From Chthoniobacterales bacterium (GTDB lineage Bacteria > Verrucomicrobiota > Verrucomicrobiia > Chthoniobacterales > UBA6821): DNA of 64,000 nucleotides. Positions within the stretch are counted from its first letter, which is position 1. Each line of letters begins with the position of its first letter. Made by a program: the position numbers and the translations under genes. Of the stretch, positions 5,447-60,733 are shown piece after piece. The stretch covers positions 11,295 through 75,294 of the forward strand of contig JBAPTI010000016.1 in assembly GCA_049282095.1 (NCBI GenBank), in the 5' to 3' direction. Under the pieces are notes generated by a model. That model searched no databases and was not told where the DNA came from. It saw nothing but the letters and a program-made list of their open reading frames with translations.

Positions 5447-5464
5447 CACCATCCCTTTCCTGAC

Positions 5465-6910: not shown

Positions 6911-6934
6911 CAGCCACCCGTTGACCTGCTTCCC

Positions 6935-8377: not shown

Positions 8378-8391
8378 TCTGCTGATTTCCC

Positions 8392-9354: not shown

Positions 9355-9356
9355 GT

Positions 9357-13553: not shown

Positions 13554-13560
13554 TTTAACT

Positions 13561-13709
13561 CACAGGGATGAAGGGGATGAAGGAGATAGAGAAGAAAATC
13601 TCAAATGGAATAGAACAGGAACAGAACAGAGCATAGTAAGTCTGCACACAAATTCTCCTCATCCATTCTTTGCCCAAAGACCATCCCTTCCATCCCCTTC
13701 ATCCCTGTG
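13561..13709. repeat. Family-C hairpin (GGGATGAAG words) between the two paralogs
   Basis: Left arm CACAGGGATGAAGGGGATGAAGG (13561-13583). Right arm CCTTCCATCCCCTTCATCCCTGTG (13686-13709). They are complementary except for one extra C, with a ~100-nt AT-rich loop. Confidence 0.9.
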
Positions 13710-27521: not shown

Positions 27522-27587
27522 AAAATGCCAAAACAGGGGATTTCCGCATCTCCCCACTTCTTCATTTTTCATTCTGCCTTTTGCCTT
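27501..27587. repeat. Family-B hairpin, copy 1 (GAAAAAT words), upstream of thiH
   Basis: Left arm GAAATGAAGAAGGAAAAATGAAAAATGCCAAAACAGGGG, 12-nt loop, right arm CCCCACTTCTTCATTTTTCATTCTGCCTTTTGCC. The arms are imperfectly complementary. Confidence 0.85.
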
Positions 27588-27598
27588 AGTATTCATCC

Positions 27599-28789
27599 GT
27601 GTCCTTTTCCACACAGATCGATTCGTTTCTCTCGTCGCCGCCGCACGAGCTTGCCGCCTTCCGGCGTCTGCTCGAACCGCTCGGCGATGCCGCGCTTGAG
27701 GAACTGGCCCGCCGGTCCGTCGCGCTGACGCGCAGGCATTTTGGAAGGACGATGCGGATGTTCGCGCCGCTCTACCTCTCCAACGAGTGCGTGAACAACT
27801 GCTCCTATTGCGGATTCTCCCGCGACAACGCCATTCTTCGCGTCACTCTCGAGATCGAGCAGGTCGCGGCCGAGGCGCGCCATCTTGCGGCGGAGGGATT
27901 CCGCAACATTCTCCTGGTTGCCGGGGAGCATCCCAAGTTTGTCTCCGGCGGCTATCTCCGCCAGTGCATCGAGCGACTGCGCCGTGAGATTCCTAGCATC
28001 TCGCTGGAAGTGGCCCCGATGGAGACCGGGGAGTACATCCCGATGGTCGATGCCGGGGCCGAGGGGTTGGTGGTCTATCAGGAGACCTACGACCGGGAAG
28101 CCTACCGGGAGTTCCACACGGCGGGCCCCAAGAAGGATTACGACTGGCGTCTCGATGCGGCGGAGCGCGCCCATGCCGCGGGATTCCGCAGGCTCGGTAT
28201 CGGTGTTCTCTTCGGTCTTTCCGACTGGCGTCGCGAAGCGACTGCCTTGGCGGCACACCTGTTCCATCTTCAGCGAGCCTGCTGGACCTCCCAGATCACG
28301 GTCAGTCTCCCGAGGCTCCGTCCCGCTGCGGGTTCCTTCGAGCCGAGGTTTCCGTTCGAGGATCGCGATCTCACCCAACTTCTCTGCGCGCTGCGCGTCA
28401 CCTTCCCTCATGTGGGGATTGTCCTCAGTACGCGCGAACCTGCACCTCTCCGCGATGCGTTGGCTCCGCTGGGTGTCACGATGATGAGCGCCGGTAGCCA
28501 CACCGAGCCCGGTGGTTACACCGGTCAAGGAGCGGATCAGGTCCATCAAACCGTGAAGGGGAAGAAGGTCGAGGGATCGATCCCCGCCAGTGCCTGCGGA
28601 TCGACCCAGGCGACCGAACAGTTCTCGATCAGCGACGACCGCTCCCCCGCGGAAGTCGCGGCGGTGCTCCGTTCCAAGGGGCTCGAACCGGTCTGGAAGG
28701 ACTGGGACGCAGCGATCCTAAGAAATGATGAAGGAAAAATGAAAAATGAAAAAACAGGGACTTCAATTGCAGTGCCGATACCTGCCTGA
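27599..28789 (+). CDS. thiH: 2-iminoacetate synthase ThiH (radical SAM)
   Basis: CVNNCSYCGF radical-SAM cluster motif and ThiH-like collinearity to ...GLEPVWKDWD. The last ~20 codons (RNDEGKMKNEKTGTSIAVPIPA*) are encoded by the repeat. Confidence 0.9.
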   Translation: MSFSTQIDSFLSSPPHELAAFRRLLEPLGDAALEELARRSVALTRRHFGRTMRMFAPLYLSNECVNNCSYCGFSRDNAILRVTLEIEQVAAEARHLAAEGFRNILLVAGEHPKFVSGGYLRQCIERLRREIPSISLEVAPMETGEYIPMVDAGAEGLVVYQETYDREAYREFHTAGPKKDYDWRLDAAERAHAAGFRRLGIGVLFGLSDWRREATALAAHLFHLQRACWTSQITVSLPRLRPAAGSFEPRFPFEDRDLTQLLCALRVTFPHVGIVLSTREPAPLRDALAPLGVTMMSAGSHTEPGGYTGQGADQVHQTVKGKKVEGSIPASACGSTQATEQFSISDDRSPAEVAAVLRSKGLEPVWKDWDAAILRNDEGKMKNEKTGTSIAVPIPA

Positions 28790-28829
28790 TTTCCCCCCTC
28801 TTCATTTTTCATTCTACATTTTGCCTTTC
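28721..28829. repeat. Family-B hairpin, copy 2, between thiH and thiS
   Basis: Left arm AGAAATGATGAAGGAAAAATGAAAAATGAAAAAACAGGG, 34-nt loop, right arm CCCCCCTCTTCATTTTTCATTCTACATTTTGCCTTTC. The arms are near-identical to copy 1 and in the same orientation. Confidence 0.88.
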
Positions 28830-28835
28830 TGCCCC

Positions 28836-29036: not shown

Positions 29037-29043
29037 GAGAAAA

Positions 29044-29119
29044 GTATGAATGATGAAGTATGAGGGATGAAAAAGCGGAACAGATCCTTTCATAATTCAT
29101 AATTCAACATTCATATTTC
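29044..29119. repeat. Family-C-like hairpin (ATGAA / TTCAT words) between thiS and the U32 gene
   Basis: GTATGAATGATGAAGTATGAGGGATGAAAAAG ... CCTTTCATAATTCATAATTCAACATTCATATTTC. The arms are imperfect complements. Confidence 0.75.
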
Positions 29120-31800: not shown

Positions 31801-33426
31801 GTGAAATGGATCGCCCCCACTGAACGAGATCAGGCTTCGAGCACTCTGGAAAAGCGTCTCTGGGATGCCGCTGACCAGTTTCGGGCAAATTCCGGCCTGA
31901 AGGCCGCCGAATACTCTACCCCAGTCCTCGGTCTCATCTTCCTCCGCTTTGCCGATGCCCGCTTCGCCGCCCAGCGGGCTAAGCTCGAGGCAGCCTCCGC
32001 CGGAGCCTCCTCCCGCTCTTCCCGTCGTGGCAGCCGCGTCGAGGAGCCCGATGCCTACCATGCCGAGGGGATCCTCTACCTCCCAGCTGAAGCCCGGTTC
32101 GACTACCTCCTATCTCTCCCCGAGGCGGAGAACATCGGAGCGAAGGTGAATGCCGCCATGCTGGCCGTCGAGAAGCAGAATCCCCAGCTCTCCGGCATCC
32201 TCCCGAAGACCTACAACCTCTTCTCGAGCACCCTGCTCAAGGGCCTCCTCAAGAAGATCTCCGAGATCCCCGTCACCACCGACTACGACACCTTCGGCCG
32301 CGTCTACGAATACTTCCTCTCCGAGTTCGCCATGACCGAGGGGCAGGGTGGGGGAGAGTTCTACACCCCCTCCAGCATCGTCCGCCTGCTCACCGAGATC
32401 CTTGAGCCCTACCACGGCTATATCCTCGACCCCGCCTGCGGCTCCGGCGGTATGTTCGTCCAGAGTGCCCGCTTCGTCTCCGAGCATCGGAAGAACCCCG
32501 CCAAGGAGCTCGCCATCTTCGGCCAGGAGAAGGAACGCGCCACCACCGACCTCTGCCGCATGAACCTCGCCGTCCACGGCCTCGAGGGGAATATCAAGCA
32601 GGCCATCAGCTACTACGACGACCCCCACGCCGCCACGGGACGGTTCGACTTCGTCCTCGCCAACCCTCCCTTCAACGTCAACGCCGTCGACAAGGAACGC
32701 CTCGCCGACTCCGTCGGCCCCGGACGCCGATTTCCCTACGGTCTCCCCCGCACCGACAATGCGAACTACCTCTGGATCCAGCTTTTCCACTCCGCGCTGA
32801 ATGCCAAAGGCCGCGCCGGATTCGTCATGGCGAACTCCGCCTCCGACGCCCGCTCCTCCGAGCAGGAACTCCGCCGACAGCTCATCGAGAGCCGCAGCGT
32901 CGATGTCATGGTCTCCGTCGGGCCGAACATGTTCTATACGGTCACGCTTCCCTGTACCCTCTGGTTTCTGGATAAGGGAAAAGCCACCACGCCCCGCGCT
33001 GACACCGTCCTCTTCATCGACGCACGCCACATCTACCGCCAGATCGACCGGGCGCACCGCAACTGGACCCCGGGACAGGTCGGCTTCCTTGCGAATCTGG
33101 TCCGCCTCTACCGTGGCGAGCAGCCCGACTTCACACTGGGCGGCGAGGAGGCCGAAGCGAAGCTGAAGGAAATTTTCGGAGCCAAGGCTGCCTATGCCGA
33201 CATCCCCGGCCTCTGCAAGGCGGCGAGCCTTGCCGAGATCGAGGCGCAGGGCTGGAGCCTGAATCCCGGACGCTACGTCGGTGTTGCCCCCGGAGAGGAA
33301 GTCAGCGACGAGGACTTTAAGGAGCAACTCGAGACACTGAACGAAGAACTGACCGCGCTGAACGCTCAGGCCCGCGAACTCGAATCAACCATTGCTCAGA
33401 ACGTGGCTGAGATTTTGGAGGGATAA
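31801..33426 (+). CDS. hsdM: Type I restriction-modification system, DNA methyltransferase subunit (GTG start)
   Basis: HsdM N-domain [35 protein letters not shown], AdoMet motif [12 protein letters not shown], catalytic NPPFN. Confidence 0.95.
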
Positions 33427-33428
33427 CC

Positions 33429-34676
33429 ATGGCTGCTTCCCAAATGCGGAAGGTAAAACTCAAAGAGGTTTGCGAGCGCATCACCGTCGGACATGTAGGT
33501 CCGATGGCAGACAAATATGCATCCGCAGGGATTCCATTTCTTCGATCACAAAACATCACGCCATTTCGGTTAAATATCGAAGACATCAAGTATGTGCCTC
33601 GCGATTTTCATGAGAAGCTTCGTAAATCAGCACTAAAGCCCGGAGACGTTGCTGTTGTCCGCACAGGCTATCCAGGAACGGCTTGCGTTATACCGGAGAC
33701 ATTTCATGAGCTGAATTGTGCAGACCTCGTCATAATAACGCCTTCAGTCGCCCTCAATCCGCACTATCTTGCAGCAATTTTTAACTCGGCGTGGGGGATT
33801 GCGTCAGTTGCAGGAAATCTGGTTGGTGTAGCTCAGCAGCATTTCAATATAGGTGCGGCTAAGGATCTTGAAGTACAGCTGCCGCCCCGTCCTATACAGG
33901 ACCGCATCGCTGGAATCCTCTCCGCCTACGATGAGTTGATCGAGAACAGCCAGCGGCGGATCAAGGTGCTCGAGACCATGGCCCGGAACCTCTACCGCGA
34001 ATGGTTCGTCCATTACCGCTATCCCGGCAACGAAAGCACCCCGCTCATCCCATCCCCCCTCGGCAATATCCCCAAAGGCTGGGAGGTGATTAAGCTCCCA
34101 GAGTGCGTGGACATCAACCCTCGCGTTACCGTTCCCCGTGATGGTGAAAAGCCTTTCGTGCCAATGGGCTGCCTCTCCAACGACTCGATGATCATCTCCA
34201 ATATCGAGTCGCGCTCTGGCAACAGCGGCGCAAAATTCCAGAACGGCGATACCCTCTTTGCCCGAATCACCCCCTGTCTGGAAAATGGAAAGACAGGATT
34301 CGTGCAATTTCTTCCAGATGGGTCATCGGTCGCCTTCGGCTCGACAGAGTTCATTGTCCTTCGTTCCCGCTCCCTCACTCCTGAGTTCGTCTATTGCATG
34401 GCTCGGAGCGAGGAGTTTCGTGGAGTGGCCATCAAAAGCATGTCTGGTGCAACGGGGCGTCAGCGTGTTCAGGAGCAATGCTTCGACGATTACAACCTGG
34501 CCCATCCCTCGAGAGCCCTGCTCGATCAATTCTCCGATATTGTATCGCCCAGTTTCCGCCTCATCCAAAAACTACATCTTCAAACCCTAAACCTCCGCAG
34601 AACCCGCGACCTGCTCCTCCCCCGCCTCCTCTCCGGCCAGATTCCTCTTCAAACCCCCACCACCGAAGCCGCATGA
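33429..34676 (+). CDS. hsdS: Type I restriction-modification system, specificity subunit
   Basis: 415 aa with two target-recognition domains. They are separated by the conserved helices RIAGILSAYDELIENSQRRIKVLETMARNLYREWF and end in ...LNLRRTRDLLLPRLLSGQI. Confidence 0.92.
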   Translation: MAASQMRKVKLKEVCERITVGHVGPMADKYASAGIPFLRSQNITPFRLNIEDIKYVPRDFHEKLRKSALKPGDVAVVRTGYPGTACVIPETFHELNCADLVIITPSVALNPHYLAAIFNSAWGIASVAGNLVGVAQQHFNIGAAKDLEVQLPPRPIQDRIAGILSAYDELIENSQRRIKVLETMARNLYREWFVHYRYPGNESTPLIPSPLGNIPKGWEVIKLPECVDINPRVTVPRDGEKPFVPMGCLSNDSMIISNIESRSGNSGAKFQNGDTLFARITPCLENGKTGFVQFLPDGSSVAFGSTEFIVLRSRSLTPEFVYCMARSEEFRGVAIKSMSGATGRQRVQEQCFDDYNLAHPSRALLDQFSDIVSPSFRLIQKLHLQTLNLRRTRDLLLPRLLSGQIPLQTPTTEAA

Positions 34677-35383
34677 GCGAGTTGCTGAACATCTACTGTG
34701 ATGAAAGTTGCCATCTTGAGAACGATGGTCAGAAGAGCATGGTGCTCGGAGCCATCACCTGCCCTAAAGATAAGGCCCGTGAAATTGCCGTGAGATTGCG
34801 GGAACTAAAGCAGGAGTCGGGCCTGTCTCGTCACATGGAGGTGAAATGGACCGGGGTCTCTCCGGCGAAGCTCGATTTCTATCGGCACTGGCTGGACTAC
34901 TTTTTCGACGATGATGATCTTACTTTTAGGGCCCTCATTATTCCCGATAAATCAGCCTTGGATCATTTGAAGTACGCGCAGAGCCATGATGATTGGTACT
35001 GGAAGATCTACTTCGACATGATCAAGGCGGTTCTCAATGAGGAGCATCGATACAGGATCTTCCTGGATCTGAAGGACACTCTCGGCGGAAAACGAGTTGA
35101 GAAACTTCACGAGGTGCTGAGTAACAGTCTCTATGATTTCAACCGGGAGATCGTGACTTCCGTGCAGTTGGTTCACTCCCACGAGATCGAACAGATGCAG
35201 CTTGCCGATCTCCTGATTGGGATTCTTTCCTACAAGGCTAGGGGGCTCTCATCTAGTCTGGCAAAGCTGTCTCTAGTGGAGCGTTTTAACGAGCGTAGCA
35301 AATTGACGCTTGAGAGATCGACGCTCCTAAGCGCCCGGAAAGTGAATTTGCTCTTCTGGAAGCCCAATTTCTCGAAGGAATAA
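34673..35383 (+). CDS. DUF3800-like protein (function unknown) embedded in the hsd operon
   Basis: 236 aa from ATG 34673 (ATGA overlap with the hsdS stop). N-terminal LNIYCDESCH and C-terminal IEQMQLADLLIG match the DE / Q..D hallmarks I associate with DUF3800. GC is lower than in the flanks. Confidence 0.6.
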   Translation: MSELLNIYCDESCHLENDGQKSMVLGAITCPKDKAREIAVRLRELKQESGLSRHMEVKWTGVSPAKLDFYRHWLDYFFDDDDLTFRALIIPDKSALDHLKYAQSHDDWYWKIYFDMIKAVLNEEHRYRIFLDLKDTLGGKRVEKLHEVLSNSLYDFNREIVTSVQLVHSHEIEQMQLADLLIGILSYKARGLSSSLAKLSLVERFNERSKLTLERSTLLSARKVNLLFWKPNFSKE

Positions 35384-35862
35384 TGGCTGCAAAAGATTGG
35401 CTCCCTAGTTTGATCGAGTTCAGTTCCTGTGGGGGAAGCTGGGATCGTTATCTGGAAGTGATTTATGCTGCTTTCCGGGAAGACTTTGTTAACTCGAAAC
35501 CCTTATTCCGGGGTAGGAGACTAGGTCTGAAACGCCATCCTGAATATGCAGGGAAAGAGGCCACTTTCTGGCACCTGATTACAGAAGGTGCAGTGGAGGC
35601 GGATCGAACTCCGGATTTCCGCCGGTGTGAGCGGATCCGGTGGCCCCGCCCAGTTATCGAAAATGAAGCGGATGTCGAGGTGCTGGTGTGGAGTGAATCA
35701 CGAGGTTCCCGTGATAACCGAATCCATCTTTATCTACCCAATGAGCGCTATCTAGTGGTTCTGTCAGACCGTGGAAATTACATTCTCCCCTGGACGGCTT
35801 ACTATGTTCAACATGAGAACGGACACCGTAGATATCTCCAACGCCATGCCCGTCATTCCTAA
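35383..35862 (+). CDS. Hypothetical 159-aa protein, no recognisable family
   Basis: The start overlaps the upstream stop (TAATG). Sequence blocks: ATFWHLITEG, RCERIRWPRPVIEN, RYLVVLSDRGNYILPWTAYYV. No TM segment or signal peptide. Confidence 0.55.
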   Translation: MAAKDWLPSLIEFSSCGGSWDRYLEVIYAAFREDFVNSKPLFRGRRLGLKRHPEYAGKEATFWHLITEGAVEADRTPDFRRCERIRWPRPVIENEADVEVLVWSESRGSRDNRIHLYLPNERYLVVLSDRGNYILPWTAYYVQHENGHRRYLQRHARHS

Positions 35863-35872
35863 AAATGCTGAA

Positions 35873-35890
35873 GCCGCTCCGAAGAGCGGC
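35873..35890 (+). terminator. Stem-loop after the cassette (GCCGCTC-CGAA-GAGCGGC); weak terminator or processing site
   Basis: 7-bp GC stem with a 4-nt CGAA loop, 11 nt after the stop. No U-tract follows. Confidence 0.3.
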
Positions 35891-35973
35891 CTCGTAACTC
35901 CTTCCACAACATGGTGGATGAGATGGGTAAAACCTACTTCAGGACTCTTTTGAGTCAAGAATCAATCTAGCCC

Positions 35974-38900
35974 ATGAGCCCCCACGCCTACTCCGAGGAT
36001 CAGCTGGTCGAGCAACCGGCAATCGCCCTCTTTGGCGAAATGGGGTGGAAGACGGTGAGGGCCGATGAGGAGTCCTTCGGGCCGATCGGTACTCTCCAGC
36101 GTGAAACAAAGAGCGAGGTAGTATTAGCCACACCTCTGAGGGGCGCCCTCACAAAGCTGAACCCATCCCTCCCGGCCGAGGCGATCGACTCCGCCGTGGT
36201 CGCCCTGACCCGTGACCGCTCGGCGATGAGTCTGGAGGCGGCCAATCAGGAGATCTATGAGCTACTGAAGCAGGGTATCACGGTCTCCGTCCCGGATCGG
36301 GAGCGGGGAGGGCAGAAGATGGAGCGTCTGCGGGTGATCGACTGGGAGCATCCGGAGAATAATGATTTCCTGCTGGTGAGCCAGCTGAGTATCACGGGCC
36401 AGCTCTACACCTGCCGTCCCGATCTGGTCGGCTTCGTGAATGGTCTGCCACTGATGGTGATCGAGTTTAAGAAGCCGGGAGTCCCGGCTCGGGTGGCCTT
36501 TGACGAGAATCTGACCCACTACAAGAGGGAGATCCCATCGCTCTTCTGGTATAATGCATTCCTGATCGCCTCCAATGGCACGGAGAGCAGGGTTGGATCG
36601 CTGACCGCTGACTGGGGACGTTTCTTCGAGTGGAAGCGGATCGAGCGCGAGGATGAACCGCGTCGGGTCTCGCTGGAGGTCATGCTCCGTGGAACATGCG
36701 ATCCGAGGCGTCTGCTCGATCTGGTGGAGAACTTCACGCTCTTCTCGAAGCATAAGTCGGGGTTGGTGAAGATCATCGGGCAGAATCACCAGTTCCTCGG
36801 GGTGAACAATGCCATCACCTCGATGCTCGCGGCCCGGGCAATGGGGCATGGTCGAGGTGGGGTCTTCTGGCAGACGCAGGGGAGCGGGAAGAGCTTCTCG
36901 ATGGTCTTCTTTGCCCAGAAGGTGCTGCGCAAGGTCGCGGGGAACTGGTCCTTTGTCGTGGTGACGGATCGCGTGGAGCTGGATGAGCAGATCGCCACCA
37001 CGTTCAAGGCGACGGGTGCCGTCACCGAGGCGGAGGGGGATATGTGCCATGCCGGGAGTGGGTCCGAGCTGAGGGAGCTGCTCCGGGGGAATCACCGCTA
37101 TGTCTTCACGCTGATCCAGAAGTTCCAAACTCCCGAGGTGCTCTGCGACCGCTCTGACGTGATCGTGCTGACCGATGAGGCACATCGGAGCCAATACGAC
37201 ACGCTGGCCCTCAACATGCGTGCTGCCTTGCCGAAGGCGCTCTTCCTGGCCTTCACCGGTACGCCTCTGATCGCGGGGGAGGAGCGGACGAAGGAGGTCT
37301 TCGGCGACTATGTCTCGATCTATGACTTCCAGCAGTCGGTGGAGGACGGGGCGACGGTGCCCCTCTTCTACGAGAACCGGACGCCTGAACTCCAACTGGT
37401 GAATCCCGATCTGAACGATCAGATCTATGACCTGATCGAGGAGGCGCAACTCAACCCCGAGCAGGAGTCGAAACTCGAACGAGAACTCAGCCGCCAATAC
37501 CACATCATCACCCGCGATGACCGTCTGGAGACGGTGGCCAAGGATATCGTGAATCATTTCCTTGGCCGTGGATTCCAAGGGAAGGCGATGGTGGTCTCCA
37601 TCGACAAGGCGACCGCACTCCGGATGCATGCGAAGGTTTGCCGTCTATGGGATGAGGAGATAGTCAGGGTAAGCAAGGATTTAGCAGGATATCAGCTAGA
37701 TCCCGAGATAACGGCCGAACTCGAAGCGCGTCTGAAGATTCTACAGGAAACCGACATGGCGGTGATCGTGTCGCCGGGGCAGAACGAGATCGATCAGATG
37801 CAGAAGCTCGGTCTCGATATCCGTCCCCATCGCGAGCGGATGAACGCCGAAGAGCTGGATGAGAAGTTCAAGGAGACGGAGGATCCTCTCCGGCTGGTCT
37901 TTGTCTGCGCGATGTGGCTGACCGGCTTCGACGCCCCGAGCTGCTCGACTATCTACCTCGACAAGCCGATGCGGAATCACACGCTCATGCAGACAATCGC
38001 ACGAGCGAACCGGGTCTTCCCCGGCAAGCACAGTGGTCTGATCGTGGATTACGCCAACGTCTTTGCCTCACTGGAGAAATCGCTCGCGGTCTATGGCGCA
38101 GGGCAGGGGGGAGTCACCCCAGTCCGCAATAAGGAGCAACTGATCGCCGACCTGAGGAAAGCGATCGATGAAGCGACTCAATTCTGCGCCAGCAAGCGAG
38201 TGAATCTATCTGTTATCGAGGAGGCACCACCGAAGACGATGGAGCGTCTGAATCTGTTGAGCGAAGCGGTGAATGCTCTGATCTCGCCCGATCCTCTGCG
38301 GAAGGAGTTTCTGGCGCATGATCGGATTGTCCGAACTCTGTATGATGCCGTGAAGCCGAGTCCGGAGGTGCTTGTCCATACACCCCGAGTGAGCTGTCTT
38401 GTGGCGATTGCCGATGCCATCAAGTCCCAGCTCAATCCCAACCCGCCCGATGTTTCCGTTGTCATGGGGCGGATCAATGAGCTGCTCGACCAGTCAATCG
38501 AGGGTGTGGAGATGGCGGCGAAGCCACTCCCTCTGCTGGATCTTAGCAAGATTGATTTCGCGGCACTGGCCAAGCGCTTTAAGAATTCCAAGAAGAAGAA
38601 TATCGAACTGGAAGCCCTGAAGGCTTCGGTGAAGGCATTGCTCGACCGCCTGATCGCGATGAATCGTACCCGGACCAACTACACGGAGAAGTTCGAGGAG
38701 CTGATCGAGGCCTACAACAATGGGAGCAAGACCATCGAGCAACTGTATCAGGAACTTCTGGAGTTAAGCCGAAACCTGTCTGAGGAGGAGGCCCGGCATG
38801 TTCGGGAAAATCTTACCGAGGAGGAGCTGACCGTCTTTGATCTCCTGACCCGTCCCGGACCCGAGCTGTCCACTGATGAAAAGGAAGAGGTCAAGAAGGT

Positions 38901-39111
38901 GGCCCGCCTTCTCCATCAGAGACTCCAACGCCTGATTACTTTCAACTGGCGGCAGACGATACAGGCCCGAGCTCTCGTCAAGAACGCCATCGAGGAGACC
39001 CTTGATGAGGGGCTTCCCCGCGCCTACGCCCCCGAACTCTACAAAAACAAATGCGGTGTTGTCTTCGAGCACGTCTATGAGACCTACTCGGAAGAGAAGG
39101 CTAGGGCTTAA
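35974..39111 (+). CDS. hsdR: Type I restriction enzyme, endonuclease/translocase subunit
   Basis: 1045 aa with the N-terminal nuclease region, SF2 motor motifs WQTQGSGKS (motif I) and VLTDEAHRSQ (DEAH), and a C-terminal helical domain. Confidence 0.95.
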   Translation: MSPHAYSEDQLVEQPAIALFGEMGWKTVRADEESFGPIGTLQRETKSEVVLATPLRGALTKLNPSLPAEAIDSAVVALTRDRSAMSLEAANQEIYELLKQGITVSVPDRERGGQKMERLRVIDWEHPENNDFLLVSQLSITGQLYTCRPDLVGFVNGLPLMVIEFKKPGVPARVAFDENLTHYKREIPSLFWYNAFLIASNGTESRVGSLTADWGRFFEWKRIEREDEPRRVSLEVMLRGTCDPRRLLDLVENFTLFSKHKSGLVKIIGQNHQFLGVNNAITSMLAARAMGHGRGGVFWQTQGSGKSFSMVFFAQKVLRKVAGNWSFVVVTDRVELDEQIATTFKATGAVTEAEGDMCHAGSGSELRELLRGNHRYVFTLIQKFQTPEVLCDRSDVIVLTDEAHRSQYDTLALNMRAALPKALFLAFTGTPLIAGEERTKEVFGDYVSIYDFQQSVEDGATVPLFYENRTPELQLVNPDLNDQIYDLIEEAQLNPEQESKLERELSRQYHIITRDDRLETVAKDIVNHFLGRGFQGKAMVVSIDKATALRMHAKVCRLWDEEIVRVSKDLAGYQLDPEITAELEARLKILQETDMAVIVSPGQNEIDQMQKLGLDIRPHRERMNAEELDEKFKETEDPLRLVFVCAMWLTGFDAPSCSTIYLDKPMRNHTLMQTIARANRVFPGKHSGLIVDYANVFASLEKSLAVYGAGQGGVTPVRNKEQLIADLRKAIDEATQFCASKRVNLSVIEEAPPKTMERLNLLSEAVNALISPDPLRKEFLAHDRIVRTLYDAVKPSPEVLVHTPRVSCLVAIADAIKSQLNPNPPDVSVVMGRINELLDQSIEGVEMAAKPLPLLDLSKIDFAALAKRFKNSKKKNIELEALKASVKALLDRLIAMNRTRTNYTEKFEELIEAYNNGSKTIEQLYQELLELSRNLSEEEARHVRENLTEEELTVFDLLTRPGPELSTDEKEEVKKVARLLHQRLQRLITFNWRQTIQARALVKNAIEETLDEGLPRAYAPELYKNKCGVVFEHVYETYSEEKARA

Positions 39112-40798: not shown

Positions 40799-41076
40799 AG
40801 AGACTGTCTGAAAACTCGGGAGAGCCGCGTTGGCGGGGATTTTTCCGTTGGCCAAGAAGGGAGGACGGCGGCAATACCCGTGCGGTCTTGTTCCGTCCGA
40901 TCCGACACTGGCCAAAGGGAAAAGCCACCCAACCCTTCGGGCAAGAGCAAGAGAAGCTGTCTGGCTGCGTTCCCTGCTCGGTCAAAGACCACTGCGGGGA
41001 TTCTCCCTCGCAGGTGCCTGACCATCCAGACACCCCTTGCTCTCGCGCGGCATTCCCCATTTTTCAGACAGTCTCT
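40799..41076. repeat. 278-bp unit closed by a perfect 16-bp inverted repeat (MITE-like element or structured RNA)
   Basis: AGAGACTGTCTGAAAA (40799-40814) is the exact reverse complement of TTTTCAGACAGTCTCT (41061-41076). The interior is GC-rich with no credible ORF. Confidence 0.5.
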
Positions 41077-41846: not shown

Positions 41847-41971
41847 GAATCACGCTACGGCCGGAGATGCGCCGCGCAAGGAAGAGAGGTCTACGCATTA
41901 CCCGTATCTCTTCACGCTGCCTGCTTACCTTTAGCCTTCAGTCTTCGGACTTCAGCCTTTAGTCTCCCCCG

Positions 41972-44313: not shown

Positions 44314-44410
44314 TAATCAGGAACCGGAGGGGGATGAACAACGACGAAGGCAAAAGGCAAAAGGAAGAATGAAAAAGGCTATCCAATCATCTTTCTGAGT
44401 TCCTGATTCA
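44314..44410. repeat. Composite element: D-type 10-bp inverted repeat enclosing a solo family-B arm
   Basis: AATCAGGAAC (44315-44324) pairs with GTTCCTGATT (44399-44408). The interior GGCAAAAGGCAAAAGGAAGAATGAAAAAGG (44349-44378) matches the reverse complement of family-B right arms. Confidence 0.65.
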
Positions 44411-44586: not shown

Positions 44587-46830
<2,244 letters not shown>

Positions 46831-46843
46831 TTCTGAAACTCTC

Positions 46844-48103: not shown

Positions 48104-48111
48104 AGATTTTC

Positions 48112-48271
48112 TTAATCAGGAAATCAAGAAATCAGGAAAAAAAAGGAGACTGATTGGTGAGACTGTTGCTCGTGGATCTGCCGCGAGATACCCCGTCTCC
48201 CTTTTTGCTCTCTTCCGATTCCTGAGTTCCACATTCATCATCTCTGTGTTTCCGCGCCTTTGCGGAAAAAT
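48112..48271. repeat. Family-D hairpin, copy 2, plus conserved 47-nt tail, downstream of argD
   Basis: Left arm TTAATCAGGAAATCAAGAAATCAGGAAAAAAAAGGAGAC (48112-48150). Right arm GTCTCCCTTTTTGCTCTCTTCCGATTCCTGAGTTCC (48195-48230). The tail ATCTCTGTGTTTCCGCGCCTTTGCGGAAA matches 761-790. Confidence 0.85.
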
Positions 48272-48303
48272 CAACAATCTTCCTACGCGCTCAGACGGCT
48301 TTC

Positions 48304-55464: not shown

Positions 55465-55516
55465 GAAGGGTATCTCCCTTCTAACGTTGTAACTTTTCCA
55501 CTTTTTAACGCTTACG
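55465..55516 (+). terminator. Hairpin GAAGGG-TATCT-CCCTTC followed by a T-rich solo family-A arm
   Basis: Lies 13 nt after the E2 stop. The downstream CTAACGTTGTAACTTTTCCACTTTTTAACGC resembles the right arms of the family-A hairpins. Confidence 0.4.
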
Positions 55517-55579
55517 GCTTCACGCCCGAGCGGTGAAATATTTCGCAACTTTTGAATCGGGGCGGTGTTTCCCCGAGTG

Positions 55580-55951
55580 ATGAAAACACCGCAGATCACC
55601 ACCCTCCTGATGATTCCCCTCTTTGGCGTGATGCCGCTCGTGGCCCAGAGCGGTGCGCCCAACCCAACCCCGGCCTGCAGTCCTGCCGACGGTCACGGAC
55701 GCCATGCCAAAAAGGATTTGGCAAATCTCACCGATGCTGAACGCCAGCAACTCAAGGCGGCCATGAAACAGATCAAGAATGATCCCCAGTTGGTTGCTTC
55801 CCGCGAAGCCGTGAAGGAGGCTCAAACCAAGGAGGCCCGTATCGCGGCAATGCAGGAAAATCGGAAAATCCGCCACGATCTTCTCCTGAAGGCCGATCCC
55901 TCGCTTGCCTCCATCCTGGCCAAGATTCGCCCAGGGAAACCCGTCGAATAA
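55580..55951 (+). CDS. Secreted helical repeat protein, 1 module (LTxxE[RK]xxL ... DPS..ILAKI)
   Basis: Signal peptide MKTPQITTLLMIPLFGVMPLVAQ. One module: LTDAERQQLKAAMKQIKNDPQLV...LLKADPSLASILAKI. Confidence 0.6.
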   Translation: MKTPQITTLLMIPLFGVMPLVAQSGAPNPTPACSPADGHGRHAKKDLANLTDAERQQLKAAMKQIKNDPQLVASREAVKEAQTKEARIAAMQENRKIRHDLLLKADPSLASILAKIRPGKPVE

Positions 55952-55981
55952 TCATCACGAACAAACCTGCAACCATTCCCT

Positions 55982-56755
55982 ATGAATACTTCACTGAAAC
56001 ACCGCTTTCACCTGACGCTCGTTGCGGCATTGATGTCGCTGCACCTGGGCGCACAGGCCCAAACCGATTCAGCCATGATGATGGAGGCAGGAACTCCTGC
56101 TCCCACTCCTTCCCCCTCTTCTTCTTCCCAACCGTCAGCGGAAGGACAATCCGGCAAGGGACCGGGACAGTATGGCCCGATGGCCCAACTCAGTGAATCC
56201 GAGCGTGCCCAACTTAAAGCGGCCCATGATGCTGCAATCCAGAAGGATCCCTCCTTGGAACAAGCGATGGAGGCTGCCCGTCAAGCCATGGAGAAGGCCC
56301 GCAAGGCGATGAACGATGCCATGATCGCCGTCGATCCCTCAGTCGAGCCGATCTTGGCCAAGATCGCCCCGCCGAAGAGGGGTGGAGGCCCCGGCCCCGG
56401 TCATCCCCCGGGTAATCAGGCGGGGCAGGGCTCTGCAACCAATGCCGTTCGCCCTTGGAAACATGACGGTCCCGGACCAAAAGGAATGGCAAAACTAACC
56501 GAGAGTGAACGCCAGCAACTAAAGGCACTTCACGAGCAGGTGAAGAATGACACCTCGGTCATCGCCGCCCGTGAGGCGAGGAAAGCGGCCACCACGCCCG
56601 AGGCCCGCAAGGAGGCAGAACAGGCAATGCATCAGGCCGTTCGCAACGCCGTGATCGCGGTCGATCCCTCAATTGCACCTGTTCTGGAAAAACTGAAACC
56701 ATCCGGTGCCGGGGCTCCGCCCGCCGGAGAGCAAATGACCCAGCCGAACCCTTGA
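55982..56755 (+). CDS. Secreted helical repeat protein, 2 modules
   Basis: Signal peptide ...LVAALMSLHLGAQAQ. Modules LSESERAQLKAAHDAAIQKDPSLE...IAVDPSVEPILAKI and LTESERQQLKALHEQVKNDTSVI...IAVDPSIAPVLEKL, joined by Gly/Pro-rich linkers. Confidence 0.6.
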   Translation: MNTSLKHRFHLTLVAALMSLHLGAQAQTDSAMMMEAGTPAPTPSPSSSSQPSAEGQSGKGPGQYGPMAQLSESERAQLKAAHDAAIQKDPSLEQAMEAARQAMEKARKAMNDAMIAVDPSVEPILAKIAPPKRGGGPGPGHPPGNQAGQGSATNAVRPWKHDGPGPKGMAKLTESERQQLKALHEQVKNDTSVIAAREARKAATTPEARKEAEQAMHQAVRNAVIAVDPSIAPVLEKLKPSGAGAPPAGEQMTQPNP

Positions 56756-56818
56756 CAAAAAAATATTCGGTGCAATCCTATAACTGTAGTACGTTGGTTC
56801 AATCACCCTAACCCACCT

Positions 56819-57442
56819 ATGAAAAAACAAACACTACTTCCGTTGCTGGCAGCCCTCATCGCCCTCCCCCTCCACGCGCAAGCCGTTAAGGAATCGGATC
56901 TCACTCCCGAAGAGAAGACCTTGTTGAATGCTGTCAGGACAAAGGCCGGCGCAGATGCCTCCGTCAAGCAGGCCACCGAGGTCGTGAGAACAACCAAGAT
57001 CGAGGTGATCTCCAAGGCCGACCCCACGCTTCAGCCTTTCGCAAACAAGATATATAATCCCGTCGCTTTGAATCCTAACGACCTTCCTGCCGACGAGAAG
57101 GCAAAGTGGAATGCAGCTGCTGGCAAACTCGGCAGTGACCTTGCGATCTGGAAGGCCTTGGAGGCCCTGACCGCGATGAGGATCGAGGCCATCGTCAAGA
57201 TTGACCCCAGCTTGGAGCCACTGGCCAAAAAGATTTACATCACCCCATCCATGCCGCTTACTGCCCTTACTCCCGAAGAGAAGACCAAGTGGGATGCAGC
57301 CGTGAAAGCTTCCGGTAGTGATCCTGCGATGAAACAAGCCAATGAGACCCTTAAAACGACCAGAAAAGAGGTGATGCTCAAGATCGATCCGAACGTCAAA
57401 CCGATCTTGGACAAGATCGATCCTCCTGCTCCTGCACAGTAA
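56819..57442 (+). CDS. Secreted helical repeat protein, 3 modules
   Basis: Signal peptide MKKQTLLPLLAALIALPLHAQA. Modules start at LTPEEKTLLNAV, LPADEKAKWNAA and LTPEEKTKWDAA. Each ends in K[AI]DP..[QEK]P[FLI][AL][ND]KI. Confidence 0.6.
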   Translation: MKKQTLLPLLAALIALPLHAQAVKESDLTPEEKTLLNAVRTKAGADASVKQATEVVRTTKIEVISKADPTLQPFANKIYNPVALNPNDLPADEKAKWNAAAGKLGSDLAIWKALEALTAMRIEAIVKIDPSLEPLAKKIYITPSMPLTALTPEEKTKWDAAVKASGSDPAMKQANETLKTTRKEVMLKIDPNVKPILDKIDPPAPAQ

Positions 57443-57466
57443 TATCGGCTCATTTGATTCATTCAA

Positions 57467-57505
57467 AGCGCCATGCTGGAAACGGCATGGCGCTTTTTGT
57501 TTTTT
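57467..57505 (+). terminator. Canonical intrinsic terminator of the secreted-protein cluster
   Basis: AGCGCCATGC-TGGAAACG-GCATGGCGCT forms a perfect 10-bp stem, followed by TTTTGTTTTTT. Confidence 0.88.
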
Positions 57506-57790
57506 AACCCGGAATTTGCATTGGGAATTTCTGAGAACATAGGAGGCCGAGTTAAAAGAGTTAAAAAGGTGAAATGTTACAACGTGGATCCGGGAGAGCC
57601 CTGACTCGGCATTCGAAAGGGGGAAGTCAGGGAAAGTGCCCTCAAATATGCCTTCATGAGTTCCATTCGGCCTCTGACTTCAGCCCTTTGTAACCTTTTA
57701 ACGGTGTAACGCTTTTAACCTTTTAGGGACTCACCATCCGGGTGAACCGCACAAACTGTCAACGCCGCTCTATTGCGCAATCTGGTTTAA
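57504..57790 (+). repeat. ~290-bp dispersed repeat, copy 1 (contains a family-A hairpin)
   Basis: Shares ordered blocks with 59102-59392: TTAACCC[G/A]GAATTTGCATT[G/A]GGAA, GTTAAAAGAGTTA, ACTCACCATCCGGGTGAA, GCTCTATTGC..AATC.GG.TTAA. Internal arms at 57551-57590 and 57687-57725. Confidence 0.85.
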
Positions 57791-57831
57791 GAGGCTTCCT
57801 CCAGAAAGGGCGCGAAGGATGGTAGCCACGA

Positions 57832-58059
57832 TCAACCCTGAGGCTTGATCACGTTCTTGCCGCCGCCGGTCTCCTTGGGAAGCGTGATGGTTTGGACTTT
57901 CTGCTTCGGGATCCCTTTGTGGAGCATCTTGGTGTAGGGTCCCCAGACGCACTGCGGGAAGTAGAGGTCGCGCCTGTTCTCGATCGTGGTGCATCCAGCC
58001 GTGAAGAGCGGGATCAGCAGGATGGCGAGAAGATGGCGTGGGGAGAGCACCTGATTCAT
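57832..58059 (-). CDS. Small lipoprotein (lipobox LFTAGC)
   Basis: 75 aa from ATG 58059: MNQVLSPRHLLAILLIPLFTAGCTTIENRR.... Divergent from lgt. Confidence 0.6.
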   Translation of the reverse strand: MNQVLSPRHLLAILLIPLFTAGCTTIENRRDLYFPQCVWGPYTKMLHKGIPKQKVQTITLPKETGGGKNVIKPQG

Positions 58060-58140
58060 GGGAGCGGAGCATAATCCGAAGGCCTTCCGTGATGTCAAAG
58101 AAATTGCCCCGGCTTCGCTTCTTCGCGAGGATTACCGGCG

Positions 58141-59073
58141 ATGCTTCTGGCCTACTACGTTCATGACCTGAGCCCCTTTCTCGTGCAGTTCGGGGGATTC
58201 GGCCTGCGTTGGTACGGGCTTTCTTATCTGGCGGGGTTCCTTGTCGGGATCCTGCTTTACCGGCAACTGGCCCGGCGCGGTTACTCCGACCTGCGCCCCG
58301 ATCAGGTCGCCGATTTTATCACCATGGGGGCTCTCTTCGGCATCCTGCTCGGAGGGAGGTTGGGATACATGCTCTTTTACGATCCGGAGCGTTTTTTCCA
58401 TGACCCGCTTGTTTTTTTTCGAGTCTGGGAAGGGGGGATGGCCAGTCACGGAGGAATCATCGGCCTCACGATCTTCACGTTCTGGTATGCAAGGAAGCAT
58501 CGGCTCTCCTTCCGCAACCTGGGTGATAACCTCGTCGTGGTTGCTCCGGTCGGACTCTTCTTCGGGCGCTGTGCGAACTTCGTGAACGGAGAACTCTACG
58601 GACGGATCACCGATGTGTTCTGGGCCGTGCAGTTTCCCAAGGAGATCTTTCTCTATACCCCGGATCACCTGGATCGCCTGCTCGCCAAGACCTCCGCCAT
58701 CGATCCCGCGTTCGCCTCTCCGGATGCCGTGATCGCAGGAGTCGCCGCCTCTCCGGCCCTGCGCGACCTGCTCGCCGTGGAAATCTCACCACGTTATCCC
58801 TCGCAGTTGGTGGAGGCGGGGCTGGAGGGGGCTGTTCTCTTCCTTCTGCTCTGGACACTCAGGACGAGGGTGCGGCTTGCCGACGGGGTGCTCTGCGGCA
58901 TCTTCTTCATCGTTTACGCACTCCTGCGCATTTTGGGCGAGTGCTTCCGGGAGCCGGACGCTCCGCTGACAGGGGGGCTCACCCGCGGCCAGTTCCTCTC
59001 CCTCTTCATGATCGTGATCGGTCTGCTCTTCCTTCTCTCCGCCCGCCTCAATCCCCGCGTTCGTCCCGACTAG
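58141..59073 (+). CDS. lgt: Prolipoprotein diacylglyceryl transferase
   Basis: 310 aa, polytopic. FGGFGLRWYGLSYLAGF, WEGGMASHGGIIG, GRCANFVNGELYGR, YPSQLVE are Lgt signatures. Confidence 0.93.
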   Translation: MLLAYYVHDLSPFLVQFGGFGLRWYGLSYLAGFLVGILLYRQLARRGYSDLRPDQVADFITMGALFGILLGGRLGYMLFYDPERFFHDPLVFFRVWEGGMASHGGIIGLTIFTFWYARKHRLSFRNLGDNLVVVAPVGLFFGRCANFVNGELYGRITDVFWAVQFPKEIFLYTPDHLDRLLAKTSAIDPAFASPDAVIAGVAASPALRDLLAVEISPRYPSQLVEAGLEGAVLFLLLWTLRTRVRLADGVLCGIFFIVYALLRILGECFREPDAPLTGGLTRGQFLSLFMIVIGLLFLLSARLNPRVRPD

Positions 59074-59101
59074 AGCGGTACCTTTCAACCCTTCAACGGG
59101 T

Positions 59102-59470
59102 TTAACCCAGAATTTGCATTAGGAACTGGAATCCGAGGAAAAGGAATGGGTTAAAAGAGTTAGAATCGTTAAAAGGTTACAAGGTAGATCCAAGGGTGTT
59201 GCCCAAAAACTCGAATAGATTTCAGAGAGAGTACCGGAAACGGATGCGGGGGGGCGGAGGAATCAAACTACTTGCTTCGATCCTTTGTAACTTTCTAACG
59301 CTTTCACTTTTTTAACTCGGGGCAAGAACTCACCATCCGGGTGAAGCATCCGATTCTGTTAACCCTGCTCTATTGCAAAATCCGGGTTTAACCATCCGAC
59401 GGCTCAAAATCCGGGTAAACCATCCAGACCTTTCGTCGCCTCCCTATCGCATAATCTGGGTTAAAGCCGA
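59102..59470 (+). repeat. ~290-bp dispersed repeat, copy 2, with its terminal ~30-nt motif triplicated
   Basis: Collinear with copy 1 (arms at 59149-59190 and 59279-59317). The terminal motif occurs three times: CTATTGCAAAATCCGGGTTTAACCATCC, CTCAAAATCCGGGTAAACCATCC, CTATCGCATAATCTGGGTTAAAGCC. Confidence 0.8.
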
Positions 59471-59557
59471 AAAGCAAACTGACAGCCCATCAGTTGGCGA
59501 GGCAGGAAGGTTAGGGAAGTGTGGAACCCTTCACTTTTCCGAATCTTCCCTCCGCGC

Positions 59558-60733
59558 TCACCCTTCCGGTTCCTCTTCCGTAACGACCCTGATCTGCAAG
59601 GGCTTTCCGGCGCGCAGGATTTCCATGGTCGCCGGGGAGCCTATCTCTGCTTCGGCGACGCGGTTCCTGAGATCCTTCACATCACGGATGAGGTGTCCGT
59701 TGAAGGAGGTGATGACATCCCCTCCCGAGAGTCCTCCCCGCTCCGCGGGAGAGCCCGCCATCGTGGCGGCCACGAGGGCGCCGCGCGCATCGGCCAGCCC
59801 GAGTTGGCGGGCTAGGCTGGGATTGAGCGGTCTCATCACGACCCCGAGCCAGGGGTGGATGACCCTGCCGCGCTGAACAATGTCGTCGTAGACCCGACGG
59901 GCCACGTTGGAGGGGATGGCGAACCCGATCCCCTCGGATCCGCCGCTGCGGCTGATGATGAAATTATTGATCCCGATCACCTTGCCCCGGATATCGATGA
60001 GGGGGCCGCCGGAGTTGCCGGGATTGATCGTGGTGCTGGTCTGGAAGAATTCATTGGCCGCTTCGCTGGTGGTGCGGCGTCCCTTGGCGCTGATGATTCC
60101 CTGGGTGACGGTTTCCTGGAGGCCGAAGGGATTTCCCACCGCAAAGACCATCTGTCCGACCCTGACCGATTCGGAGTCTCCGAAGGCGATCGGGGCGAGC
60201 CCCGTGGCGTCGACCTTCAGCACCGCGATGTCGGAGCGCTGGTCCGCTCCGGCAATGCGCGCGGGAAGGGCTCGTCCGTCGCTCAGTTGGACGGTGACCT
60301 GGGAGGCGCCGTTGATCACGTGCCAGTTGGTGACGATGTGCCCCTCCGGGGAGACGATCATGCCGGAGCCCATCTTGTTGTTCTGGGCGACACCTCCGCG
60401 CGCCAGGCCGAAGAACTGGCGCACGAGCGCCTCCCGGTCCGGCGCGGTGGTGGTGGTGGTGATGCTGACCACCGAGGGGATGACGTGGTCGACGAGTTCG
60501 GTGAATTCGTTGTCCATGGCCTCGAGTGAGCGCCCGGAAGGGAGAGGAAGGCGTTCGGTGGAGGAGGAGCCGGTGCCCCGCGCGATGGAGGGGGAATATT
60601 GCGGCGAGGAGGGGTGCATCAGCCTCCAGAAGGCGATGCCGCCCACGACCAGCGCAAGGGCCAGTAGAAAAAGAAGGAAGGAGGGGAGGTTTCCCCGCGG
60701 TTTTTTTGGAAGACGATACCGGGTTCTGCTCAT
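59558..60733 (-). CDS. HtrA/DegP-family serine protease with one PDZ domain
   Basis: N-terminal TM. Catalytic triad contexts TNWHVI, SDIAVLKV, GNSGGPL. C-terminal PDZ (GALVAATMAGSPAERGGLSGGDVITSFNG). Confidence 0.9.
   Translation of the reverse strand: MSRTRYRLPKKPRGNLPSFLLFLLALALVVGGIAFWRLMHPSSPQYSPSIARGTGSSSTERLPLPSGRSLEAMDNEFTELVDHVIPSVVSITTTTTAPDREALVRQFFGLARGGVAQNNKMGSGMIVSPEGHIVTNWHVINGASQVTVQLSDGRALPARIAGADQRSDIAVLKVDATGLAPIAFGDSESVRVGQMVFAVGNPFGLQETVTQGIISAKGRRTTSEAANEFFQTSTTINPGNSGGPLIDIRGKVIGINNFIISRSGGSEGIGFAIPSNVARRVYDDIVQRGRVIHPWLGVVMRPLNPSLARQLGLADARGALVAATMAGSPAERGGLSGGDVITSFNGHLIRDVKDLRNRVAEAEIGSPATMEILRAGKPLQIRVVTEEEPEG

Follow-up and report, generated by a model that had tools for sequence, protein, structure and literature searches.

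The window, by which we mean the whole 64-kb stretch of Chthoniobacterales DNA that was analysed, contains two related sequences of ~290 bp that lie ~1.6 kb apart in direct orientation. As the earlier note had described, they enclose only two genes, one for a small lipobox protein on the minus strand and lgt on the plus strand. The gene upstream of the first copy ends in an intrinsic terminator. The features of the locus, including the terminal inverted repeats (TIRs) of the two copies, are as follows:

57465-57502, plus strand: intrinsic terminator of the upstream gene, with a 14-pair stem and a T tail; copy 1 begins directly after the T-run.
57503-57793, plus strand: copy 1, a complete element of subfamily 1 (~290 nt); its match in another species, L006 7526-7822, is 88% identical over 297 nt.
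57503-57527, plus strand: copy 1 left TIR, TTTAACCCGGAATTTGCATTGGGAA, 92% identical to the left end of copy 2, with a minus-strand match to the end motif.
57547-57591, plus strand: copy 1 left hairpin arm, made of GTTAAAAG-type 8-9-mers and ending in GTGGATCC, with a period-9 array at 57549-57566; 78% complementary to 57688-57719.
57592-57684, plus strand: core of copy 1, particular to subfamily 1; identity is 82-91% with the L002, L003, L005, L006 and L008 cores and 45% with the copy 2 core.
57685-57725, plus strand: copy 1 right hairpin arm, made of CCTTTTAA-type 8-mers (period 8, 4.9 copies).
57729-57746, plus strand: internal motif ACTCACCATCCGGGTGAA; small hairpin, containing the ATCCGGGT of the end motif.
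57767-57793, plus strand: copy 1 right TIR, GCTCTATTGCGCAATCTGGTTTAA, with an end-motif match at 57773-57791 (3 mismatches).
57832-58098, minus strand: small lipobox protein gene, outside the element, with the lipobox-like signal LFTAGC.
58141-59073, plus strand: lgt, outside the element (PF01790; homologues up to 97% identical).
59080-59100, plus strand: arm-like CCTTTCAACCCTTCAACGGGT, just outside the left end of copy 2.
59101-59392, plus strand: copy 2, a complete element of another subfamily (~291 nt; 59-64% identical to every other copy).
59101-59125, plus strand: copy 2 left TIR; 59097-59123 pairs with 59443-59469 over 27 nt at 81%.
59148-59194, plus strand: copy 2 left hairpin arm, of period 8, 77.8% complementary over 45 nt to 59275-59316.
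59275-59320, plus strand: copy 2 right hairpin arm, with direct and inverted repeat matches.
59328-59392, plus strand: copy 2 first right module, consisting of ACTCACCATCCGGGTGAA, a spacer and the end motif GCTCTATTGCAAAATCCGGGTTTAAC (59373-59391, 0 mismatches).
59402-59466, plus strand: copy 2 duplicated right module, at a 74-nt offset (right-module HMM match 59387-59466, E 6.6e-12).

Alignment of the two copies recovered all of the ordered identical blocks that had been reported, with order and orientation kept and a start-to-start spacing of 1597-1600 nt. The similarity was well above chance in both the left part (blastn, 74.5% over 94 nt, E 5e-9) and the right part (72.6% over 113 nt, E 4e-10). 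Over the full length identity is 60%, with 66% on the left, 45% in the core and 70% on the right, and the longest exact stretch that they have in common is the 18-nt ACTCACCATCCGGGTGAA, which was also found in L002, L003, L006 and L008.

The ends of each copy are mutually inverted, a feature absent from the earlier note. The TIRs are ~25 nt long and have the form TTAACCCRGAATTTGCATTGGGAA ... CTATYGCAnAATCYGGGTTAA, and the end motif can be written as the pair TTAACCCRGAATTTGCA ... TGCAnAATYYGGGTTAA. A search of the window with TTGCAnAATYYGGGTTWAA gave five matches, every one at the element ends of copies 1 and 2, against a chance expectation of 0.06. In an alignment of nine copies, in which columns 3-22 pair with columns 276-295, the end pairs are retained in seven to nine; the weakest terminal repeat is the right end of copy 1, with its three mismatches to the end motif. 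Each element contains a long hairpin with arms of tandem AT-rich octamers, and a subfamily-specific core. The hairpins with differing loops that had been noticed in the two copies have real arms and unrelated loops, and the arms pair imperfectly (~78% complementary per copy).

The right module repeats the ATCCGGGT end motif, and ATCCGGGT is present three to five times per element. What had been read as three tandem versions of a terminal motif at the end of copy 2 is indeed a repeated array, but the repeating unit is more aptly taken as the 74-nt right module, which is duplicated in tandem and extends copy 2 to 59466; the middle version is a degenerate internal ACTCACCATCCGGGTGAA. The duplicated module matches the first in blocks of 73% and 78% identity, has an end motif at 59447-59465 with one mismatch, and closes with the sequence that pairs best, as an inverted repeat, with the copy 2 left end. 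Similar duplications were detected with the right-module HMM in L002 (6209-6309) and L003 (484-586). The suggestion that this array binds protein is plausible insofar as the motifs are putative transposase-binding sites, and the array itself goes back to the module duplication, of which other copies have their own instances.

Genome and metagenome collections, neither of which includes the source genome, were scanned for the left-end pattern. Six loci were found in three other Verrucomicrobia MAGs, on up to three contigs per MAG, and one contig was found among the metagenomes. Several copies per genome are common to the window (two in 64 kb), MAG JBIIGI01 (three contigs) and JBEIJN01 (two contigs). 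The positions are not orthologous: L006 is syntenic with window positions 4663-10432 (86%), yet the element adjoins an unrelated gene there, and despite the different locus it is the L006 element that is 88% identical to copy 1. Viral contigs gave no match to the element, nor did an annotated plasmid collection to copy 1 or an annotated phage collection to copy 2.

Within subfamily 1 the core is kept across species (82-95%), and copies in other species are 83-88% identical to copy 1. Coding sequences are 86% identical, and the between-species identity of the elements is therefore by itself no proof of recent movement. Cores from different subfamilies are 42-54% identical and unalignable. Once nested insertions are taken out, all copies measure 289-294 nt; such constancy despite the divergent cores could hint at functional constraint. 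L008 shows module mosaicism, and in L002, L003 and L005 nested GC-rich insertions add extra hairpin modules at one precise point; this GC-rich module is absent from the window. Octamer-arm hairpins are abundant in the intergenic DNA of these genomes, the source genome included, and forms of the hairpin unit that have no TIRs, that are arrayed in tandem or that carry (GGTTACAA)n expansions were seen as well. The same TIR-less unit adjoins the left end of the element in L003 and L008 and its right end in L006, and the CCTTTCAACCCTTCAACGGGT outside copy 2 corresponds to the right arm of the unit at the left ends in L003 and L008. Copies 1 and 2 and L004 lie between convergent genes, and the L008 element, by our reading, between what appear to be divergent gene starts.

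Comparison with the lgt loci of relatives indicated that the two copies arrived separately. L009 has the upstream gene, its terminator and a distal spacer of the same length (45 nt) without the 290 nt, and thus represents an empty site for copy 1. In L018, a ~92% identical relative, the right end of copy 1 is found at the same junction, lgt and mgtC are intact neighbours and copy 2 is missing, so the two copies were acquired at different times. Apart from L018, no element was found in the relatives' lgt neighbourhoods (~176 kb), and no relative examined has copy 2 downstream of lgt. Absence around lgt in all relatives, combined with uniqueness in this genome, had been named in the earlier note as evidence against its reading; the absence is nearly borne out, but the element is not unique in the genome.

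The lipobox protein, called as 75 aa in relatives, adjoins lgt in all of them, and the synteny upstream of the pair is unchanged in every relative examined; therefore the elements came to lgt, and lgt stayed put. Downstream, mgtC directly follows lgt in every relative examined, and the synteny of the window with relatives stops 23 nt before copy 2, which coincides with the lost ancestral lgt-mgtC linkage. Independent short-read Logan contigs of the same strain end at 57531, 57830, 59232 and 59329, inside or adjoining the two copies, where repeats would be expected to interrupt assembly. The join across 59233-59328 has its support in the window assembly only, and the apparent rearrangement at copy 2 could be a chimeric join through the repeat. 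The element junctions are mostly TA, TTA or TTAA, which are invariant and might be TIR sequence; the right junction is TG in L004, L007 and L008. The single empty site, L009, is diverged in sequence and has no TA at the junction.

The elements have no coding capacity. The sole ORF inside them, which overlaps the left end and has 43 codons, is attributed to chance. Small reverse-strand ORFs of the cores and TIR-less units (e.g., MxSKLLDG...SGSTL*) were considered and rejected, as subfamily 1 does not preserve the frame (by reading), and L003 and L008 differ by five non-synonymous against two synonymous changes. No transposase, and no longer element with matching ends, was found among the external left-end matches, all seven of which are short elements, and the retrieved loci contained no autonomous partner; a low-GC region of the window at 33.4-36 kb that was considered as a transposase is a type I restriction-modification locus instead. 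A sigma-54-like reading of GGAATTTGCAT was rejected by eye because the GG-GC spacing is 5, not 10. Integron attC and Xer/dif-like sites were likewise set aside by eye: CGCATAA and GTTAAA are in common with dif at the wrong spacing, and the octamers do not fit GTTRRRY.

The earlier note had proposed that the direct repeats and the lipoprotein-lgt pair form a composite, possibly mobile or amplifiable, unit. The direct orientation, the 1.6-kb distance and the enclosure of just two genes would suit a block that is moved, amplified or deleted as a whole, but we consider this very improbable. The repeats belong to different subfamilies with unrelated cores, and repeats of 60% identity with an 18-nt longest exact match are a poor substrate for RecA-dependent recombination. 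L018 has copy 1 without copy 2, the upstream synteny of lipoprotein-lgt is kept in all relatives and no transposase was found; neither near-identical flanking repeats nor a block moved or amplified as a whole was observed. What survives of the proposal is mobility at the level of the single repeat, since each is dispersed, TIR-bearing and insertion-polymorphic on its own. If a single intergenic region had been duplicated locally and its copies had then diverged, with no mobility involved, they would lie close together with the same module order. That history is scarcely credible given that copy 1 has 88% identity with elements of other genomes vs 60% with copy 2, that the element occurs on unrelated contigs and that relatives have clean empty sites.

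Functional readings fared somewhat better. The elements might be genes for a multi-copy structured small RNA, or RNA regulatory elements, in which the hairpin and core fold functionally and the modular insertions are variable domains. The cross-species conservation of the subfamily 1 core, the conserved length, the addition of hairpin modules at one exact point in L002, L003 and L005, and a copy 2 fold better than shuffled controls (z -4.2) are in keeping with this. However, the copy 1 fold is no better than shuffles (z +0.28), the consensus fold of the nine copies is weak (-24 kcal/mol over 300 columns), and covariation in these nine sequences, a number of limited power, gave no support (RNAalifold term, an unfavourable +1.01). 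Rfam had no matches at the gathering threshold in the whole window, and a search of 57400-59600 at an E-value threshold gave only matches with E above 1. A consensus scan detected no credible promoter or terminator inside the elements. Its matches were a promoter-like site assigned to the lipoprotein gene, a weak hairpin at 59338-59352 and the terminator that ends the upstream gene. With subfamily cores that cannot be aligned and elements missing from the same sites in close relatives, an RNA gene is quite unlikely. Domestication of the element as a module for protein binding, insulation or termination that separates convergent units, with the ATCCGGGT motifs bound by a host protein, is unlikely as well. 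The convergent contexts of copies 1 and 2 and L004, the repeated ATCCGGGT and the wealth of intergenic octamer-arm hairpins in the genome speak for it, but copy 1 follows an already complete intrinsic terminator, the L008 element appears to lie between divergent gene starts, relatives have the same genes without the element, and the motifs are laid out as TIRs, as expected of transposase sites. The regulatory or insulator module offered as an alternative in the earlier note is not supported at this locus, where the copies sit between convergent 3' ends and close relatives do without them.

Taken together, the two repeats probably inserted independently of each other, as two diverged members of a MITE-like family of Chthoniobacterales whose elements are non-coding and ~290 bp long. 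This family was previously undescribed, and its hosts are uncultured freshwater Chthoniobacterales (Verrucomicrobiota). Small size (below ~500 bp) and lack of coding capacity, TIRs, dispersed copies and presence/absence polymorphism at orthologous sites are all features of MITEs that we observed; no autonomous IS sharing these TIRs turned up in the collections and loci searched. As a guess from the TA ends, the parent IS family would be IS630/Tc1-like. A transposase acting in trans would bind the terminal and subterminal motifs and mobilise the element, presumably with a preference for AT-rich spacers containing TA or TTAA. Copy 1 would have entered directly behind the terminator T-run and copy 2 the short lgt-mgtC spacer, and we propose that both survive because they lie between convergent 3' ends, where no promoter is disturbed. 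The loss of the lgt-mgtC linkage likely came about through an element-mediated rearrangement or recombination between dispersed copies. There is also a slim chance that the elements are not merely selfish but modular, length-constrained (289-294 nt) cassettes coupling transposon-like ends to octamer-arm hairpins; the hairpin unit would then be a lineage-specific device (a bidirectional terminator/insulator or a small-RNA precursor) that a TIR element has spread between convergent genes.

Reading the repeats as MITE-like insertions turns a suspicious pair of repeats on either side of an essential envelope gene into ordinary mobile-DNA litter, and removes the idea of lgt amplification or excision. 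Copy 2 marks a lineage-specific break of an lgt-mgtC linkage that is conserved elsewhere. The family is a likely source of contig breaks, and possibly of chimeric joins, in MAGs of Chthoniobacterales, and together with the octamer-arm hairpins it could serve as a strain marker.

Among known systems, composite transposons and IS-flanked units similarly have two related direct repeats that bracket cargo genes, whereas the lgt repeats are non-coding, 60% identical and separately acquired, with a cargo that is fixed relative to its upstream neighbours. REPs are single palindromes of 20-40 bp without TIRs that are mobilised by RAYT (IS200/IS605-like) transposases. The lgt element resembles REP/BIME and GTAG/CGTC-tagged repeats in being intergenic and palindromic, often between convergent genes and sometimes clustered. 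It differs from these and from other IS200/IS605-derived repeats in its 290-nt length, TIRs and modular interior and, by our reading, in having no GTAG/CGTC head.

Correia elements (CREE/NEMIS) of Neisseria are 100-155 nt long, with TIRs of ~26 nt and subtypes that differ internally. The lgt element is likened to them by features, not by sequence: it is similar in TIR length, in the possible TA at both junctions, in the potential for long RNA/DNA hairpins, in its intergenic position often near gene 3' ends and in internal sequence that varies by subtype, whereas it is twice as long (290 nt), comes from another phylum and has no evidence of the promoter, IHF-site or RNase III processing functions of Correia elements. 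Bacterial MITEs are TIR-type non-autonomous transposons such as Nezha of cyanobacteria, RUP of Streptococcus and IS630/IS5-derived MITEs. Unlike these, the lgt element has an octamer-arm internal hairpin and a duplicated right module, the TA/TTAA at its junctions may be a target-site duplication or part of the TIR, and no cognate IS or transposase was found for it. It is like them in being small (~290 bp), non-coding and intergenic, with ~25-nt TIRs, in having several diverged copies or subfamilies per genome and presence/absence polymorphism between close relatives, and in its nested insertions and the contig breaks that it leaves in short-read assemblies.

All sequence blocks listed in the earlier note were found in both copies (copy 1, 57503-57793; copy 2, 59101-59392 plus a duplicated right module ending at 59466), with order and orientation conserved and a start-to-start offset of 1597-1600 nt in the region examined (57200-59800). 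When each copy was searched against the whole window using blastn, the left blocks matched each other at 74.5% over 94 nt (E = 5e-9) and the right blocks at 72.6% over 113 nt (E = 4e-10). A degenerate terminal motif was detected five times in the 64 kb, always at the ends of copy 1 or copy 2, against 0.06 expected from shuffles. Given the block order, the blastn matches and the excess of the terminal motif, we conclude that the repeat is genuine and does not simply reflect A/T-rich words. The pair is a diverged repeat: the copies are 60% identical overall in the family alignment (left 66%, core 45%, right 70%), and the longest exact string common to both is 18 nt.

Both copies lie between convergent genes, and neither has displaced a promoter.

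Neighboring features of the two copies
56819-57442, plus strand, 207-aa gene, left neighbor of copy 1
57465-57496, the 207-aa gene's own strong intrinsic terminator
57832-58098, minus strand, small lipobox protein, right neighbor of copy 1
58141-59073, plus strand, lgt (PF01790), left neighbor of copy 2
59558-60733, minus strand, trypsin/PDZ HtrA-like protease, right neighbor of copy 2

The 207-aa gene belongs to a tandem set of three (55565-57442) whose products are small and probably secreted (128, 257 and 207 aa) and have repeated L(T/S)E(S/A)ER..QLKA motifs in common. It is absent from the lgt-locus contigs of two relatives (L010 and L019) and just 73% identical in a third (L009).

Inverted-repeat termini are present in both copies, and the end pairs are retained in seven to nine of the nine family members; in copy 2, 59097-59123 pairs with 59443-59469 (27 nt, 81%). 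The TA/TTAA at the element junctions, a candidate target-site duplication, does not vary and could belong to the terminal inverted repeat (TIR) itself.

Order of parts inside the termini
1, spacer
2, left arm of GTTAAAAG-type 8-9-mers, with GTGGATCC at its end
3, core of ~95 nt
4, right arm, ~78% complementary to the left arm and detected as period-8 arrays
5, invariant ACTCACCATCCGGGTGAA mini-hairpin
6, spacer of ~20 nt, then the right end

The three terminal motifs reported earlier for copy 2 are a 74-nt tandem duplication of the right module, with 59328-59392 present again at 59402-59466. Two copies in another genome have a comparable duplication (L002, 6209-6309; L003, 484-586).

The element has no conserved ORF and is non-coding, and a search of Rfam gave no match. 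The fold of copy 1 is not superior to that of shuffled sequence (z = +0.28); that of copy 2 is (z = -4.2), mostly because of the inverted repeats in its termini and arms. Across the nine copies the consensus structure is weak, with an unfavorable covariation term. Within the limited power of nine sequences, these data fit inverted repeats at the DNA level better than a selected RNA structure.

A left-end pattern was scanned against a collection with one genome per species and against metagenomes, the source genome being outside both. The former gave six loci in three Verrucomicrobia MAGs (labeled Chthoniobacterales, three contigs; Spartobacteria, one; Verrucomicrobiia, two), and the latter one further contig. 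All are complete elements of 289-294 nt once nested insertions are removed. Copy 1 and the element on L006 share 88% identity over 297 nt, and the genome behind L006 also matches window positions 4663-10432 (86% over 5.8 kb). Because that genome is syntenic yet its element adjoins an unrelated gene, the two positions are non-orthologous. Copy 2 shares 59-64% identity with every other family member and is, judged by sequence, a member of another subfamily. The L008 element is a mosaic, with the left part and core of the copy 1 subfamily and a right module of L004 type.

Three elements (L002, 5830-6002; L003, 794-887, minus strand; L005, ~204-293, minus strand) are interrupted at one shared point, after GTTACAAC, by nested multi-hairpin insertions that are GC-rich, 90-173 nt long and bounded by CAAC. 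These insertions are probably a second small repeat family, and none was found in the window. A TIR-less arm-core-arm unit abuts the left end of the element in L003 and L008 and the right end in L006. At 7020-7520, L006 has a (GGTTACAA)x10 microsatellite followed by ~2.5 tandem copies of a 146-nt arm-core-arm unit, also TIR-less, which is 79% homologous to the interior of the L004 and L007 elements.

The element contains one AT-rich tandem-arm hairpin of a type seen in many intergenic regions of the window. The arms of these hairpins are tandem 7-9-mers (GTTAAAAA, GGGATGAAG, AAATGAA, AATCAGGA and others), purine-rich then pyrimidine-rich, and often end just 5' of a start codon.

AT-rich hairpin sites and other features of the window
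2642-2743, hairpin site, arms of different types and non-complementary
13560-13710, hairpin site
27502-27587, hairpin site
28721-28830, hairpin site
29042-29119, hairpin site
31801-39111, type I restriction-modification locus (hsdM, hsdS, hsdR, judged from translations), with two additional genes (~240 and 159 aa) in a lower-GC dip between hsdS and hsdR
40799-41076, unrelated 31-nt inverted-repeat pair, 87% complementary and 216 nt apart, which may be another small element
41936-41965, hairpin site
44347-44379, hairpin site
46683-46833, hairpin site
48107-48300, 194-nt intergenic stretch with a AATCAGGA array
48114-48139, hairpin site
55484-55513, hairpin site

The 194-nt stretch can be aligned to 985-1173 of one relative's contig (L014), and 27 nt stand in its place in another (L016, 889-915); it is a further indel-polymorphic intergenic element.

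Lgt homologues at 82-97% identity are abundant, and 15 contigs of relatives (~176 kb in total) were sampled. All 15 have the order E2 dehydrogenase, small genes, ~100-nt spacer, 75-aa lipoprotein gene (minus), lgt (plus) and mgtC (plus), with mgtC starting 40 nt past lgt or overlapping it by 4 nt. Left- and right-module HMMs found no element in these loci except in L018 (~92% nucleotide identity), whose contig begins within the right end of copy 1 at the same junction and keeps the lgt-mgtC linkage intact. L009 has an empty site: it shares the upstream gene and its terminator, its distal spacer is 45 nt as in the window, and the 290 nt are missing. Synteny between the window and relatives extends from ~47.1 kb to 59078, ending 23 nt short of copy 2. 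The two copies were therefore acquired at different times, and the genes between them never left their ancestral upstream context, which together argue against the composite or amplifiable lgt unit that the earlier note had proposed.

In the window, copy 2 and an ExbB-ExbD-TPR-HtrA block of convergent orientation take the place of the lgt-mgtC linkage (59074-59558), owing either to a rearrangement confined to this lineage or to a chimeric assembly. An independent assembly of this strain, the Logan contigs from SRR28003389, agrees with the window at 100%; one of the contigs, L023, was placed by an exact protein match. The contig ends (57531, 57830, 59232 and 59329) fall within or beside the two copies, as expected of multi-copy repeats. 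Since contigs end at 59232 and 59329, the join over 59233-59328 is supported by the window assembly only, and a chimeric join may lie at copy 2.

We consider it likely that the elements form an undescribed MITE-like family, two diverged members of which inserted independently in AT-rich spacers beside lgt. Like MITEs, they are small and non-coding, have TIRs, occur in several dispersed copies and are polymorphic for insertion. No cognate autonomous IS was found at the element loci retrieved, copy 1 had no match in an annotated plasmid collection and copy 2 none in a phage collection, and a search of the literature on MITEs in Verrucomicrobia yielded nothing specific. A regulatory or insulator role, also raised earlier, is a minor possibility. 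Length is conserved at 289-294 nt across subfamilies with nearly unrelated cores, which simple selfish spread leaves unexplained. A MITE-like family would matter in practice for assembling MAGs and typing strains of freshwater Chthoniobacterales. The element probably works like bacterial TIR-type MITEs, and in architecture its nearest textbook analogue is the Correia elements.
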